From an uncultured Ignavibacteriales bacterium (lineage in GTDB: Bacteria; Zixibacteria; MSB-5A5; GN15; FEB-12), in NCBI GenBank assembly GCA_964464605.1, contig CAYXJN010000001.1, positions 379,068 to 443,067 on the forward strand: a DNA stretch of 64,000 nucleotides, written 5' to 3'. The position numbers and the translations under genes are program-made. Positions 1-11,303 of this stretch are shown here, one piece after another. The notes below the pieces were generated by a model that ran no database searches, was not told the origin of the DNA, and saw nothing but the letters and a program-made list of their open reading frames with translations. The first letter of the stretch is position 1; every line of letters begins with the position of its first letter.

Positions 1-53
1 CGCATTTGCGTCTGGAATTCGTAAGTGCGAAGATCGTTCGGGGAAATGTCCAT
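1..53 (-). CDS. divIVA: DivIVA-domain protein, 5' end only (runs off window)
   Basis: Reverse strand from ATG at 53 reads MDISPNDLRTYEFQTQMR, matching the DivIVA N-terminal pattern (xTPxDIxxxxFxxxxRGY); lies downstream of yggS as is common. Not in the ORF track. Confidence 0.7.
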   Translation of the reverse strand, partial: MDISPNDLRTYEFQTQM

Positions 54-6189: not shown

Positions 6190-6404
6190 GTAGGTCAAAA
6201 CCCCTGCGGTTTTGACATTTTCTTTGTAGGTAGGCGTTTCGAGTCTTCGAGAAACCCGACAAATTCTTCACGAATCATTTGACCCCACAGCAAGCTGTGG
6301 GCGACCCAGCCGAAGATAAAGATTATTAGTTTACAAATCCGGTAGCACACCCTTTAGGGTGTGATCTTATGCCTTGGTCCCCCACCAATCCTTGGTGGGT
6401 TTCC
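6190..6404. repeat. REP-like palindrome cluster 2 (five hairpins)
   Basis: GTAGGTCAAAACCCCTGCGGTTTTGAC (6190-6216); GTAGGCGTTTC..GAAACCCGAC (6230-6260); CCCACAGC-AA-GCTGTGGG; GTAGCACACCCTTTAGGGTGTG (6342-6363); CCCACCAA-tcc-TTGGTGGG; between convergent genes. Confidence 0.75.
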
Positions 6405-6440
6405 TATTTTCGGGCTGCCAGCTTTCAACGCAATGTGAAT

Positions 6441-7082
6441 TTACTTACTTACGCTATCATTCCAGAGTGCAGGAGCTATCCCTTTTTTTGAACTCAAAAT
6501 GATACAAGTGTCTCGGTAAGCCTTTGCAATTGAATCTTTACCTAACGCTTCAAAGTGATAAGCCAAATTTAGATATCTAACGTAGTCGGTAGGTTCTTGA
6601 GCTACATCAAGTCTCAAATATTTCTCGCATTCGTCTATCTTTCCTTGTCTATAAAGGATTGCCGACATTAAAAGATATGGTTTGTATGGACTTGGGCACT
6701 TTTGAATACCTCTTTGGGCGTAAGTAAAAGCAGAGTCGAGTTCGCCTAAGCGCATTAAAACGATACCCATTAGTTCCATTCCTCTACAGGCATCAGGATT
6801 CAGAGTTAACCCTTCTCTAACTCTTCGTCCGGCTAGAGTAAGCCGCTCTAATTCAAGTGCAGTTAATGGATTGTCAATACCTATTGTTAGCCATGGTGAA
6901 CCCTCACGATTGGCAAGTATATCATTCGATTCATTGAAGAGTTTTTTAGCTTCGATTTGCTTATCCATCTCTCGATCAGACATTTGAAAATGTAACGAAA
7001 GAATTGAAATATATAGCGCTCCAATAGCTACTAGTTTCGTAAACCAATCAGAGTTCTTTTTAGGTTTTTCTGGCTGCTCCAT
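6441..7082 (-). CDS. TPR-containing membrane-anchored protein, AT-rich
   Basis: GAGGA RBS, N-terminal TM, TPR-like helices; visibly more AT-rich than neighbours. Confidence 0.7.
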   Translation of the reverse strand: MEQPEKPKKNSDWFTKLVAIGALYISILSLHFQMSDREMDKQIEAKKLFNESNDILANREGSPWLTIGIDNPLTALELERLTLAGRRVREGLTLNPDACRGMELMGIVLMRLGELDSAFTYAQRGIQKCPSPYKPYLLMSAILYRQGKIDECEKYLRLDVAQEPTDYVRYLNLAYHFEALGKDSIAKAYRDTCIILSSKKGIAPALWNDSVSK

Positions 7083-7113
7083 AATATCCTCGTTATTGCT
7101 ACTTTTCTCACCC

Positions 7114-7141
7114 TTGACGATTTTGGCTTTTCTATTATATT
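7114..7141 (+). promoter_or_regulatory. putative sigma70 promoter of the Cys leader and transsulfuration operon
   Basis: TTGACG(7114-7119)-16nt-TATATT(7136-7141); ATG 7150 follows after 8 nt with no SD. Confidence 0.6.
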
Positions 7142-7149
7142 ACTTCCCT

Positions 7150-7278
7150 ATGCAACTCAGCAAACGGAACAGCCCGATCTCATTTGAAACCGTTATTGGA
7201 CGGTGCATCTGCTGCATGACTATTGATAGCTGCTGTTGCAATACTCACGGCCGCGCTTATCGAGTGACTACCGCATAA
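7150..7278 (+). CDS. Cys-rich leader peptide (42 aa), putative attenuator peptide
   Basis: MQLSKRNSPISFETVIGRCICCMTIDSCCCNTHGRAYRVTTA: six Cys codons within 7204-7239, upstream of a terminator and cysteine-metabolism genes. Confidence 0.75.
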   Translation: MQLSKRNSPISFETVIGRCICCMTIDSCCCNTHGRAYRVTTA

Positions 7279-7337
7279 CTTATTATTAGACAGTCACTTT
7301 ACGCGTTCGGCCGCCAGCTCTTATGGCGGCTTTTTTT
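7248..7337 (+). promoter_or_regulatory. attenuator: antiterminator overlapping an intrinsic terminator
   Basis: Antiterminator CGGCCG 7248-7253/7308-7313 plus AGTGACT 7263-7269/AGTCACT 7292-7298; terminator GCCGCCA 7310-7316/TGGCGGC 7324-7330 then T7; the two share 7310-7313. Confidence 0.75.
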
Positions 7338-7386
7338 ATTCCGATAAATCGGATATACTACAAGCAAAAGAATCTTTGGAGGATAC

Positions 7387-8415
7387 TTGAAAACAGCAAC
7401 GCGTAAACCCGCTTATCGTCCGCCGCAAAAGGATGAGAAGTTTTGGGTGGATGATATTACCGAGGCAATCGGCAACACCCCGTTAGTGCGGTTGAACCGC
7501 ATGGCCAAGGATGCGGGTGTGAAAGCAACAGTGCTCGTGAAACCGGAATTTCTGAATCCGACCGGATCGGTCAAAGACCGTATGGCTGTCTTTCTTTTGA
7601 AAAAAGCAGTCGCGGATGGGAAACTCAAACCGGGCGGCACCATCGTAGAAGCTACTTCCGGTAACACCGGCGCAGCAGCAGCGATGTTCGCAGCTGCCAA
7701 CGGCTACAAAATAATTCTGACTATTCCGGATAAGATGTCCAAAGAAAAAGTGGACGCCCTTCGAGCCTTTGGCGCTACCGTGCATGTCTGTCCGACGGCG
7801 GTTCCTGCCGAATCACCGGAAAGCTATTATGAAACCGCGAAACGGATGCACCGTGAAAACCCCGGTTCGTATTTCATCGCGCAGTATTTCAATCTCGATA
7901 ACATTCAGGCGCACTACGAAAGCACCGGCCCGGAAATCTGGTGGCAAACTGGCGGACAGTTGGATGTGTTAGTCGGCGGTATCGGAACGGGCGGCACAAT
8001 GTCCGGCACCTGCAAGTTTATCAAAGAGCAGAATCCGAAAGTCGAAACGGTTGCGGCTGACCCGATCGGTTCGATCTATTATGAATATCACAAGAGCAAA
8101 ACGATGACTGAACCGCATACCTACTTTGTTGAAGGTATCGGTGAAGATATGCTCTGCCCGACGATGAATTTCTCCGTTATCGATAAAGTGTACAAAGTAA
8201 CCGACAAAGAATGTTTTCTTGCCGCGCGGGATTTAACGCGCAAAGAAGGCATCTTTGCCGGTGGTTCTTCGGGTGCGGCGGTGCACGTTGCGCTGAAACA
8301 TGCCAAGACTCTTGACGCGAACAAAATCGTGGTGGTCATTCTGCCGGACGGCGGCGGTAAATATATCAGCAAACAGTTCAATGATGACTGGATGCGGGAA
8401 AAAGGATTTCTCTAA
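7387..8415 (+). CDS. cystathionine beta-synthase / cysteine synthase family PLP enzyme (no C-terminal CBS domains)
   Basis: IGNTPLVRL, EFLNPTGSVKDR, EATSGNTG, GIGTGGT, VEGIGED, ILPDGGGKY; GGAGG RBS with TTG start. Confidence 0.9.
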   Translation: MKTATRKPAYRPPQKDEKFWVDDITEAIGNTPLVRLNRMAKDAGVKATVLVKPEFLNPTGSVKDRMAVFLLKKAVADGKLKPGGTIVEATSGNTGAAAAMFAAANGYKIILTIPDKMSKEKVDALRAFGATVHVCPTAVPAESPESYYETAKRMHRENPGSYFIAQYFNLDNIQAHYESTGPEIWWQTGGQLDVLVGGIGTGGTMSGTCKFIKEQNPKVETVAADPIGSIYYEYHKSKTMTEPHTYFVEGIGEDMLCPTMNFSVIDKVYKVTDKECFLAARDLTRKEGIFAGGSSGAAVHVALKHAKTLDANKIVVVILPDGGGKYISKQFNDDWMREKGFL

Positions 8416-9599
8416 TGGATGAACATCTGAAAAACAAGAAATTCGAAACGCGGGCGATTCATGCTGGCCGTGTCGATGGAGATGAAACCGGTTCGGTCAC
8501 GACGCCGATTTATCCCAGCTCGACCTATCGCGTCAAATTTCCGGGTGATGAATCCGGGTATGTCTACTCCCGCTGGTCAAACCCGACTCGCGGTGCGCTG
8601 GAACGTGGGCTCGCTTCCGTTGAAAGCGGCAGTCATGCCTATGCCTTTTCATCCGGACTTGCTGCTTTGAATGCAGTGCTCCATTTGTTAAAGCCGGGTG
8701 ACCATATAGTTTCCGGTGATGACCTCTATGGCGGCACGATGCGCCAGTTCGAGCGCGTCATGCGGAAATTCAATCTCGATTTCAGTTATGTCGATGGTCG
8801 TGATGTCGAAAACTTCGAGCGCGCCCGCAAGCCCAATACAAAACTGTTTTGGATAGAAACGCCGTCGAATCCGCTGATGCATTTAACCGATATCGAAGCG
8901 GTTTCAGCCATCGGTAAAAAGCATGGCATTTTAACCGGCGTCGATAACACGTTTGCCTCGCCGTATATCCAGCGTCCGCTGGAACTGGGTGCGGATATTG
9001 TGCTGCATTCGATGACCAAATATATCGCCGGACACTCCGATATGGTCGCTGGTGCCTTGATCGTGAACGACAAAGCGCTCGCCGAACAGTTGCATTTTCA
9101 TCAATACGCTATTGGTGGTCAGTTGGGTCCGCAGGAATCATGGCTCGCTTTACGCGGGTTGAAAACCCTGCATGTACGGATGGAACGGCATTCGGTCAAC
9201 GCGATGAAGATTGTCGAATACTTAGAAACAGTCGATTTGGTGAAACAGATATTCTTCCCCGGTCAGGATGGCCGCAAGGTGCCGAACAAGATGTCTATGC
9301 CGGGAGGAATGCTCTCTTTCACGCTTGATGCCCCTTTCGATGCAGTGAAGGCCTTCTGCACGGCGACGGAAGTGTTCGTGCTGGCGGAATCACTCGGCGG
9401 AGTGGAATCGCTGATTAACCATCCGGCTGCTATGACGCACGCATCTATTCCCAAGGAAATCCGGGAAGCGCGCGGAATCGGCGATGGGTTGGTTCGTTTG
9501 TCGGTCGGTATCGAGCATATCGACGATCTGTTGATCGATTTGCGCCATGCGTTCGATGTGGTGCGAAAAGAGATGCGTAAATCGCACTCTCATTCCTAA
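8415..9599 (+). CDS. cystathionine gamma-lyase/synthase (Cys/Met metabolism PLP enzyme, MccB/MetB-like)
   Basis: YSRWSNPT, DLYGGT, IETPSNP, VDNTFASP, HSMTKYIAGHSD, AESLGGVES, RLSVGIE; TAATG coupling to the upstream gene. Confidence 0.9.
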   Translation: MDEHLKNKKFETRAIHAGRVDGDETGSVTTPIYPSSTYRVKFPGDESGYVYSRWSNPTRGALERGLASVESGSHAYAFSSGLAALNAVLHLLKPGDHIVSGDDLYGGTMRQFERVMRKFNLDFSYVDGRDVENFERARKPNTKLFWIETPSNPLMHLTDIEAVSAIGKKHGILTGVDNTFASPYIQRPLELGADIVLHSMTKYIAGHSDMVAGALIVNDKALAEQLHFHQYAIGGQLGPQESWLALRGLKTLHVRMERHSVNAMKIVEYLETVDLVKQIFFPGQDGRKVPNKMSMPGGMLSFTLDAPFDAVKAFCTATEVFVLAESLGGVESLINHPAAMTHASIPKEIREARGIGDGLVRLSVGIEHIDDLLIDLRHAFDVVRKEMRKSHSHS

Positions 9600-9735
9600 T
9601 TTACTTGCAATAATTCTGCTCCCGAGGTAACGCTCGGGAGCATTTAATCATACTTCTCTTCTTATTTCTTATCGACAGCGGATGCGAGTGGAAACCGCGC
9701 GTCTTGTCGTCACCTTGTCCGGTTCCGAGGTAGCA

Positions 9736-10575
9736 ATGAAAAAGCCACAGTTCGATCCGGTAGCGCTTGCCTATGCCAAACAGGTAGTGCCGCGCCGACT
9801 CCCGCAATTTTTAACTCTGACACATCGTCTTGATTTAGCCGGACATGAGCAGGTGCTTGATGTCGGCTCCGGACCGGGGCATTTATCGTTACAAATTGCC
9901 GATCGCCTGAAAGCGGGTGGGTCGGTGCATGGGATCGATATCGCTCCCAACATGGTGCGGATGGCCAAGCGGATGGCTGTACTGCACGGGAAACACAACA
10001 CGTTTTTCCGCACCGGTACGGCAACTGCGCTGCCGTATCAAGAAGAAAGTTTTGCGGTAGTTGTTTCCTCTAATGCCTTCCCCTGGGTGCCGGAGCGACA
10101 GCAATTTTTGAGTGAAGTGTTTCGCGTACTAAAACCGGCAGGGCGTTTGGCGCTCGTGACGGTGTCGAACAGATGTTATAAGGAGTTTGCCATGGCCTTC
10201 AAGCAGGTCGCGCTGGCTAATCCGAAGCTGTTTCCGGATACAAAGCCATTCCGTATGCTCGGTTCCAAAGGGCACACGCTCGATGAAGTGAACGCGCTCG
10301 TTCGCAAAACCGGATTCACGGTGACCGAAAGTTTTCTGCTAACAACGGAAGAACCAATTAGCCCTGAAGAGTATTGGGTGCGGGTCAATGCGATTATGAA
10401 TGAGAATTTTCTTAACCATTTGTCAGGTGAGAAACACAAAAAAGCGAAGGCGTTATTGTTTGCTGCTCTGGCGAAAGCCGGAAAGCGGTTGAAGATTACT
10501 GAGTCGTTCTGTTTTGTATTTGCGTCGAAGCCGGTTGTGAGATCACAATCGAAAGTTTATCGACATGCGAGTTAA
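9736..10575 (+). CDS. class I SAM-dependent methyltransferase
   Basis: VLDVGSGPG, GIDIAPNM, LPY..SF, RVLKPAGRL; GAGG RBS before ATG 9736. Confidence 0.85.
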   Translation: MKKPQFDPVALAYAKQVVPRRLPQFLTLTHRLDLAGHEQVLDVGSGPGHLSLQIADRLKAGGSVHGIDIAPNMVRMAKRMAVLHGKHNTFFRTGTATALPYQEESFAVVVSSNAFPWVPERQQFLSEVFRVLKPAGRLALVTVSNRCYKEFAMAFKQVALANPKLFPDTKPFRMLGSKGHTLDEVNALVRKTGFTVTESFLLTTEEPISPEEYWVRVNAIMNENFLNHLSGEKHKKAKALLFAALAKAGKRLKITESFCFVFASKPVVRSQSKVYRHAS

Positions 10576-11303
10576 CTTTCGAGCCAGTCCCAGCGTTTGG
10601 CGACGGTGGTAATGTCGGTCACGACTACGGGATCGATGGCCGCGAATCCCTGACCATACTTACAGCCCGCTTGCATGCCATAGGAGCGGGCTCTTGCTTT
10701 TAGCAGGTCAATGTAATCGAGTTTCTTTTCCGGATTCAAAAACTGCGAGCGATGCGCGGACAAGGCAGCAACGTACTTGTCAAAGTGCGGGGTTATATCG
10801 ACGATGAATGTCGGACTAACGCCGTGCGGCAGGAAGTAATGATAAATTCGCCGCGGCTGGTACGCCTCGCCCGGTATATCTGCTTTTTTGAGTGACGAAA
10901 GAAAGGCAGCATTTATCGTGATTTCACCGCAGGCGACATGGTCAGCGTGTGATTGCGCGCGTCCATGCCCGACTATCGGGTACGGTGTAAGAATAATTTT
11001 TGGTCTGGTTTGCCGGATGATTTTCCCTAACTCCAAACGGCGTTCGTAGGTGTCGAATAATTTGGTATCTCCCCAGTCGAGATTGACGATGATATCTACC
11101 CCCATTATTCCGGCCGCTTCTTTGAGCTCTTCCGCCCGTATTTCCGGTGTACCGCCCGTTCCCATTTCCCCTTGGGTCAGAATAACAATTCCGACTTTTT
11201 TTCCGCGAGAGGCGGCATCGATCAATACCCCAGCGCAGCCGACTTCAACATCGTCCGGATGCGGTCCGATAGCAATGAGATCATAGTCTGTTTTGGTAGA
11301 CAC
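10572..11303 (-). CDS. bshB1: PIG-L family deacetylase, bacillithiol biosynthesis BshB1-like
   Basis: GPHPDDVEVGCAG, LTQGEMGTGGTPEIR, HADH, AHRSQF; GTG 11303 likely start. Confidence 0.8.
   Translation of the reverse strand: MSTKTDYDLIAIGPHPDDVEVGCAGVLIDAASRGKKVGIVILTQGEMGTGGTPEIRAEELKEAAGIMGVDIIVNLDWGDTKLFDTYERRLELGKIIRQTRPKIILTPYPIVGHGRAQSHADHVACGEITINAAFLSSLKKADIPGEAYQPRRIYHYFLPHGVSPTFIVDITPHFDKYVAALSAHRSQFLNPEKKLDYIDLLKARARSYGMQAGCKYGQGFAAIDPVVVTDITTVAKRWDWLES

Follow-up and report, generated by a model that had tools for sequence, protein, structure and literature searches.

The window analysed here is a stretch of 64,000 nucleotides (nt) from contig CAYXJN010000001.1 of an uncultured Ignavibacteriales bacterium, whose genome comprises 2.8 Mb in 18 contigs with 48.8% G+C. 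Between positions 7114 and 10575 it carries a promoter, a short open reading frame (ORF) rich in cysteine codons, two mutually overlapping hairpins of which the second is an intrinsic terminator, and genes of a putative homocysteine-to-cysteine pathway. On the evidence of sequence comparison and folding, the leader appears to belong to a conserved family of cysteine-sensing attenuators found in one order, probably of the Zixibacteria, of which it would be a divergent and probably leaderless representative. The features of the locus are as follows.

7114–7141, forward strand: sigma-70-type promoter, TTGACG (7114–7119), 16-nt spacer, TATATT (7136–7141); consensus scan
7150–7278, forward strand: leader ORF of 42 codons, ATG at 7150, stop codon TAA at 7276–7278; sequence reading
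7204–7239, forward strand: putative regulatory Cys codons at 7204, 7210, 7213, 7231, 7234 and 7237 (codons 19, 21, 22 and 28–30)
7248–7313, forward strand: putative antiterminator hairpin, outer stem 7248–7256/7302–7313, inner stem 7262–7269/7292–7299; predicted fold
7309–7337, forward strand: intrinsic terminator, stem 7309–7316/7324–7331 with 8 pairs (6 G-C), 7-nt loop, T7 at 7331–7337
7378–7389, forward strand: Shine–Dalgarno (SD) sequence GGAGGA (7378–7383), followed by the predicted TTG start codon of the first structural gene; orthologue alignments begin at residues 1–20
7387–8415, forward strand: PALP enzyme resembling the catalytic domain of cystathionine beta-synthase (CBS), 342 amino acids, no C-terminal CBS pair; Pfam PALP, 6.8e-80
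8415–9599, forward strand: enzyme of the cystathionine gamma-lyase (CGL)/gamma-synthase family, start overlapping the preceding stop; Pfam Cys_Met_Meta_PP, 3.2e-139
9682–10575, forward strand: S-adenosylmethionine (SAM)-dependent methyltransferase, third gene after an 83-nt gap; Pfam Methyltransf_31/25/11

In a consensus scan of 6400–10800 the promoter at 7114–7141 ranked top, with 10 of 12 consensus positions matched. Its −10 box lies 8 nt from ATG 7150, so that no SD sequence is possible upstream of this codon, which is also the sole in-frame ATG, GTG or TTG between the promoter and the first Cys codon. Judged from the promoter geometry, transcription would start at or a few nucleotides from ATG 7150. 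A possible internal start at ATG 7216 is less favoured: the SD-like sequence GGACGG in front of it is poor and is weakened further by a G>A exchange at 7203 in a strain of approximately 95% identity. Because of the 8-nt gap and the poor alternative at ATG 7216, the ORF 7150–7278 is better read as probably leaderless. Cysteine accounts for 6 of its 42 codons, compared with approximately 1.0% of the residues in ORFs of at least 300 amino acids of the same genome. Promoter, SD-less ATG and six-Cys ORF had all been proposed by a sequence-only reading of this DNA, and our analysis recovered each of them at the same position.

The terminator hairpin by itself has a predicted stability of −15.0 to −15.3 kcal/mol. 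It cannot be the terminator of the upstream gene (6441–7082, a TPR protein), since that gene runs divergently, and the SD sequence of the first structural gene at 7378–7383 is located past it. The alternative hairpin pairs CGGCCG at 7248–7253 with 7308–7313 and AGTGACT at 7263–7269 with AGTCACT at 7292–7298, and it is the minimum-energy fold of 7240–7316 (−24.0 kcal/mol, z = −3.66, none of 200 shuffles as stable). The overlap of this hairpin with the 5′ arm of the terminator amounts to 5 nt (7309–7313). Both structures, the GCCGCCA/TGGCGGC stem with its T7 run and the competing hairpin, thus lie where the sequence-only reading had drawn them. In the predicted fold of 7148–7345, the Cys region forms local hairpins and is unpaired with the downstream SD sequence; no 1:2 (anti-antiterminator or pause) hairpin that competes with the antiterminator was seen in this fold. 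An Rfam search of the window gave no family in the leader region, only chance matches below threshold.

We consider it likely that this element is a ribosome-mediated leader-peptide transcription attenuator, which senses charged tRNA-Cys and controls a homocysteine-to-cysteine operon. The controlled genes would be the CBS-like gene, the CGL-like gene and probably the methyltransferase gene, making cysteine from homocysteine. When cysteine is scarce, the first ribosome would stall on the Cys codons 7204–7239 with its leading edge upstream of 7248; a ribosome placed on any of these codons leaves the RNA from 7248 onwards free. The nascent RNA could then form the long hairpin 7248–7313, which would sequester 5 nt of the terminator 5′ arm, leave the terminator incomplete and allow RNA polymerase to read through into the operon. 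With ample cysteine, the ribosome would reach the stop codon at 7276 and cover or block the 5′ strand of the hairpin. The terminator 7309–7331 with its U tract would then form, and transcription would end at approximately 7337. For these steps we infer translation of the short ORF, coupling of ribosome and polymerase, a kinetic advantage of the antiterminator and a response to cysteine.

The sequence elements and the two alternative folds are present in the window, and the design is conserved and covaries in 24 relatives. CBS-like orthologues with 62–80% protein identity occur in most genomes of the taxonomic family. Among the 30 best orthologous loci, the window's included, 9 carry a short poly-Cys ORF no more than 450 nt upstream of the gene, followed in each case by a T-run. 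A covariance model, R1, was built from an alignment of 10 relatives' leaders from which the window was left out. At a match threshold of E ≤ 0.01 it found the element in 20 of 108 genomes of the same family; a second family of that order had it in 4 of 33 genomes. There were no matches in the 5 and 14 genomes of the order's two remaining families or in 68 genomes of fifteen other families of the phylum sample. The 24 relatives' elements and the window copy together make up the 25 elements described below. A scan of 80 loci (genome_contigs) yielded four bona fide poly-Cys ORFs (L065, L071, L079 and L089), two of which duplicate loci already included; the Cys-cluster frames in L068, L081, L091, L101, L105 and L121 are without the leader architecture.

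All 25 elements share the same order of parts. A promoter of the form TTGAC[AG]-16..18-TAnnnT precedes the short ORF in each, the ORFs have 18–42 codons with 3–8 Cys codons (median 5), and the last Cys codon stands 7–13 codons ahead of the stop. A T-run follows 50–75 nt past the stop behind a stable hairpin, so that a terminator is present in all 25. The Cys codons are of both kinds (99 TGT and 27 TGC), and beyond the Cys run and the codons that contribute to the helix, the peptide sequence is unconserved across the family. Mixed codons together with an unconserved peptide point to selection on the decoding of the Cys codons, not on the peptide or on a fixed RNA sequence. The conservation of the Cys clusters would also be expected if the ORF had a functional product co-expressed with the operon, namely a cysteine-rich micropeptide that is metal- or redox-active or serves as the precursor of a ribosomally synthesized and post-translationally modified peptide. 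We regard this as very improbable: the peptides differ in length (18–42 residues) and, except in the Cys run and in the codons that form the helix, in sequence; no maturation genes were seen next to the operon among the ORFs scanned, and the terminator right after the ORF would separate it from the operon. Five amino acid replacements within the 95%-identical strain likewise speak against a selected peptide.

The leaderless start found in the window has some parallels among these relatives. At four further loci an in-frame ATG lies 7–9 nt past the −10 box and at one locus a GTG lies at 5 nt, which adds some support to the leaderless start that had been proposed for the window. Two further candidate codons, a TTG 5 nt and a GTG 13 nt past the −10 box, are probably upstream of the true starts of their ORFs. 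The other leaders of the family have 5′ untranslated regions of 19–50 nt, often with an AGG-type SD sequence.

In the relatives, the element is located in front of genes of a restricted kind. Of the 24, 20 precede a CBS-like orthologue, one a gamma-lyase-like gene, one a methyltransferase gene (49% identical to that of the window) and two a cysK-like PALP gene; a gamma-lyase gene follows the CBS-like orthologue wherever the locus extends far enough. The two elements upstream of the cysK-like PALP gene belong to one genus, and there the PALP gene is accompanied by a hexapeptide-repeat acyltransferase gene, which was identified at the repeat level only and is probably cysE. Judged from the predicted products, all targets of the leader are linked to sulfur amino acid metabolism. 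In the two loci of that genus (L160:551-1640 and L161:1463-2564) the leader has six consecutive Cys codons and a different terminator sequence; no alternative helix was evident in their masked folds.

Evidence for a conserved helix came from alignments of the relatives' leaders. RNAalifold, applied to an unsupervised alignment, gave a 7-bp helix whose 5′ strand lies in the last ORF codons and whose 3′ strand ends where the terminator core begins; two more G-C pairs would carry it into the core. The core of the relatives, CCACC/GGUGG, is constant in ten sequences and hence uninformative with regard to covariation. In a MAFFT alignment of 10 sequences, a 9-bp helix was 89.9% paired, compared with at most 59.6% when the strands were slid against each other. 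Three of its pairs show double changes, and its covariation score was matched by 2 of 500 shuffles. In the model-fitted alignment of 26 rows, which is biased towards the structure of the model and of which one row is probably spurious, 10 of 12 pairs show double changes and 91.7% pairing was obtained versus at most 55.3% when slid; the covariation score was matched by 0 of 500 shuffles. The comparison of relatives that the sequence-only reading had named as a check on its proposal, conserved Cys codons together with a covarying alternative stem, has therefore come out in its favour in 24 relatives from two families.

A 26-kb contig of a strain approximately 95% identical to the window (over 7113–7500) allowed a comparison at closer range. 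No change was found in 7113–7149 (promoter), 7204–7247 (Cys region) and 7286–7357 (hairpin 3′ strand, terminator and the bases after it), and seven changes each were found in 7150–7203 and 7248–7285. Two changes in the main stems, C>T at 7248 and A>G at 7263, convert a C-G and an A-U pair to G-U wobbles, so that pairing is kept. The changes at 7259 and 7285 each break one pair in small peripheral stems, and the others fall in bulges or loops. In the leader ORF, the five amino acid replacements leave frame, start and stop intact. Contigs of the sequencing runs X14, X15 and X20 are identical or overlap only in part and added nothing. Homology to the close strain starts at 7113, one base ahead of the −35 box; by this alignment the promoter–leader–operon unit has a different upstream neighbour there.

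To assess the switch in silico, the 25 leaders were folded with a ribosome mask placed either at the first Cys codon (stalled) or at the stop codon, and the three bottom pairs of the terminator were scored. In 17 of the 25 leaders the terminator pairs had a probability below 0.5 with the stalled ribosome and above 0.75 with the ribosome at the stop codon. In the window, nascent RNA up to 7323 folds as the complete antiterminator (−24.2 kcal/mol) before the 3′ arm of the terminator exists.

A number of observations stand in the way of the attenuator model, and the first group concerns folding. Eight of the 25 leaders, the window copy among them, do not switch by the above thresholds, and five of these remain unchanged between the two masks. 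For the window, the terminator pairs have a probability of 0.61 even under the stalled-ribosome mask, and with the ribosome at the stop codon they reach 0.69 under a mask of the footprint alone and 0.93 under a mask that also takes in all RNA 5′ of the ribosome. The unconstrained fold of 7240–7332 is a hybrid (−30.0 kcal/mol); with the terminator forced the same segment has −28.8 kcal/mol versus −26.8 kcal/mol with the outer antiterminator stem forced, i.e. the terminator state is approximately 2 kcal/mol more stable at equilibrium. Moreover, the inner part of the antiterminator is compatible with the terminator in the window, and in the relatives' consensus fold the helix directly adjoins the terminator core of 5 bp and can form alongside it. 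A ribosome on the stop codon 7276 would cover approximately 7259–7288 and not the outer 5′ strand 7248–7256, the blocking of which would thus fall to steric exclusion. Since the terminator state is favoured at equilibrium, antitermination in the window would have to be kinetic and to rest on the 5-nt overlap, which is plausible. For the competing-hairpin switch of the sequence-only reading, the family offers a conserved helix and switching in most masked folds; for the window copy itself, a shift from 0.61 to between 0.69 and 0.93 is weak at equilibrium and falls outside the range that defines a switch.

These results might also mean that the short ORF senses Cys-tRNA while the long hairpin is not a true antiterminator, control being exerted via Rho access, RNA stability, polymerase pausing, or positioning or stacking of the helix on the terminator. 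Coexistence of helix and terminator core in the consensus fold, an overlap of just 2–5 nt, the greater stability of the terminator state in the window and the eight leaders with no clear equilibrium switch all fit such an arrangement. On the other hand, the helix covaries, 17 of 25 leaders switch in the masked folds, and the 5′ strand always lies in the last ORF codons with the 3′ strand always touching the terminator, which is the geometry of competing structures. We therefore consider this explanation unlikely and prefer a terminator switched by a true antiterminator.

The second group of adverse observations concerns the distribution of the element and its statistical weight. A DNA search with the 301-nt leader found nothing similar in the genomes of 60 relatives, where its longest-standing candidate was a match of 30 nt at E 0.011, the best obtained. 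Among the 30 closest orthologous operons, 21, the nearest (79–80% protein identity) included, have no Cys-rich ORF within 450 nt upstream. The window copy was not reported in the filtered whole-genome search with R1, which gave a single match of E = 9 elsewhere. With filters off it scored 20.4 bits (E 5.4e-5 on 801 nt), compared with 27.9–113 bits for the other members, and on 74 kb its E was 0.005, beside a probably spurious match of 18.4 bits. A six-frame scan of the organism's genome counted 53,426 short ORFs, and 41 of these have four or more Cys codons together with a terminator-like site no further than 130 nt away. Finally, a second PALP gene of this genome (contig C4, 316944–317897; 49% identical, cysK-like) has an ordinary promoter region and no Cys-rich leader. 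From these sequences, leader control in the genome is apparently limited to the CBS-like operon.

The 41 chance-like combinations and the weak match of the window copy to R1 would be expected if the ORF were a chance frame beside an ordinary promoter and a fortuitous hairpin. Of all the explanations weighed here this is the least credible, given that the same architecture occupies the same position in 24 relatives and that the parts conserved selectively in the close strain are precisely promoter, Cys region and terminator. When the listed combinations were inspected, no other one in the genome showed the leader architecture; a scan for at least three consecutive Cys codons returned hundreds of chance frames and was uninformative. 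By this reckoning, the sequence of the window alone does not stand clear of chance, and it is the architecture conserved in relatives that lifts the element above it.

Orthologous operons that lack a Cys ORF can carry other leaders. In another genus (L043, L049, L051 and L058), a conserved G+C-rich leader with long complementary segments lies approximately 200 nt upstream of the CBS-like gene. Nothing credible was found in Rfam for nine loci without a Cys ORF, and the G+C-rich leader may be a regulatory RNA of another, hitherto undescribed kind that serves the same operon. In several genera without the Cys leader (L032, L037, L038, L039, L043, L049, L055 and L058), a TTGTCAA(A/T)...T-run motif also recurs, 130–200 nt ahead of the CBS-like gene. 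Different conserved leaders without Cys ORFs in other lineages indicate that other sensing systems for this operon exist, and by analogy the terminator in the window could be controlled by a trans-acting protein or by a small-molecule-binding RNA, with 7248–7313 as a riboswitch-like fold and the Cys-rich ORF as an incidental neighbour. This appears quite improbable to us: the leader matches no Rfam family, the hairpin interior varies in length and sequence to the extent that a model of 119 positions needs 210 alignment columns, and Cys run and reading frame are kept in 25 of 25 elements. In a search of 20 relatives' loci, Rfam gave nothing at gathering score apart from a thiamine pyrophosphate (TPP) riboswitch (72.3 bits) in L045, which lies at 91–187 on the opposite strand near the orthologous operon and is unrelated to the Cys leader.

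The proposed attenuator resembles the classical trpL, hisL, pheL, leuL and thrL systems in its promoter-proximal short ORF with a run of codons for the end product, in the intrinsic terminator ahead of the first structural gene, and in an alternative hairpin whose 5′ strand is formed by the end of the ORF and whose 3′ strand belongs to the terminator arm. In the classical systems, ribosome and polymerase are coupled through the 1:2 pause hairpin. The element described here differs in that it would sense cysteine, that no 1:2 hairpin was found, that the overlap with the terminator is short, that the ORF is probably leaderless, and that the host is an uncultured member of the FCB group (Fibrobacteres–Chlorobi–Bacteroidetes).

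Cys-codon leaders have been described before. Canestrari et al. (10.1101/834739) quote the general scheme of leader-peptide attenuation, state that attenuation mediated by an upstream ORF (uORF) was undescribed for cysteine, and describe polycysteine leaderless short ORFs of mycobacteria (the Ms5788A class) upstream of cysteine-related genes, where stalling reports the supply of Cys-tRNA. According to the same text, control in the Ms5788A class is translational, the poly-Cys tract pairing with the SD sequence of the next gene, and the reporter showed no transcription termination. The window element is likewise a putative leaderless Cys-codon short ORF upstream of cysteine genes; unlike the mycobacterial class it has a canonical terminator with a U tract, and in the predicted fold its Cys tract is unpaired with the SD sequence. 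The predicted uORFC-8-2 of Rhodobacterales, as outlined in Brewer et al. 2021 (PMC8632094), has two tandem Cys codons in the first stem and an intrinsic terminator, lies upstream of cysS and was interpreted there as ribosome-mediated attenuation. Compared by description only, it shares with our element a Cys-codon uORF followed by an intrinsic terminator, and given this precedent the combination is not unprecedented. It differs in belonging to alpha-proteobacteria and to a tRNA synthetase gene, whereas the leader here precedes a biosynthetic CBS-like/CGL-like operon and has its Cys codons upstream of the regulatory helix.

Leader peptides with Cys runs near the stop codon are also reported by Seliverstov et al. 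2005 (PMC1262725) upstream of actinobacterial cys operons and of Bifidobacterium longum cbs; the authors found no terminator hairpins and suggested Rho-dependent termination. The cbs-type target gene and the position of the Cys run near the stop codon are shared with those leaders as so described, whereas the terminator is conserved in 25 of 25 elements here. Full-text literature searches found no Cys leader-peptide attenuator for Zixibacteria, nor one with a terminator upstream of a CBS/CGL operon, and the consulted part of Naville & Gautheret 2010 (PMC2965389) mentions no Cys leader-peptide attenuator of this kind.

If the attenuator model is correct, ribosome-mediated transcription attenuation would extend to cysteine biosynthesis and to an uncultured phylum of the FCB group, in the form of a cis-regulatory family of 25 members, defined by a covariance model and absent from Rfam, in which SD-led and leaderless versions occur in parallel. 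It would also offer regulatory evidence, predicted from sequence, that cysteine supply acts on the CBS-like/CGL-like pair, the methyltransferase and the cysK-like/acyltransferase pair in organisms that cannot be cultivated. A bolder version, which we put forward tentatively and regard as rather doubtful in its entirety, is that a lineage-wide cysteine regulon of this uncultured phylum is run wholly by one family of poly-Cys leader-peptide terminator switches; that these are the first transcriptional cysteine attenuators for biosynthetic operons; that SD-led and leaderless forms are interchangeable; that loading of 70S ribosomes on the 5′ AUG of leaderless transcripts gives the coupling; and that the methyltransferase is tied to the conversion of methionine to cysteine. 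Were this true, 70S loading on the emerging 5′ AUG would provide the coupling that classical attenuators obtain from the 1:2 pause hairpin. The principle is textbook knowledge and Cys-sensing leader ORFs have already been published, so that the findings are useful for annotation and RNA-family curation and not surprising.

The assignment of the operon genes relies on family-level matches. For 7387–8415 the top NCBIfam match was TIGR01137, cystathionine beta-synthase, with 393 bits, which does not reach the cut-off of 510; cysteate synthase and cysteine synthase A came next. The product of 8415–9599 scored 447–455 bits against the NCBIfam cystathionine gamma-synthase and gamma-lyase models, all under their cut-offs. 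The methyltransferase gene 9682–10575 is probably the third gene of the operon and would be transcribed together with the first two. In Bacillus subtilis, the yrrT-mtnN-mccA-mccB operon for conversion of methionine to cysteine reportedly is repressed by cysteine and controlled by the repressor CymR, with no leader peptide. It likewise brings a CBS-like enzyme and a cystathionine gamma-lyase together with a methyltransferase in one operon; it differs in gene order and in the use of CymR where a leader peptide is proposed here. At locus L154 (1103-2080), the 49%-identical methyltransferase homologue is a single gene that follows immediately on a poly-Cys leader and terminator of its own. This arrangement suggests that the methyltransferase of the window belongs to cysteine (methionine-to-cysteine) metabolism.

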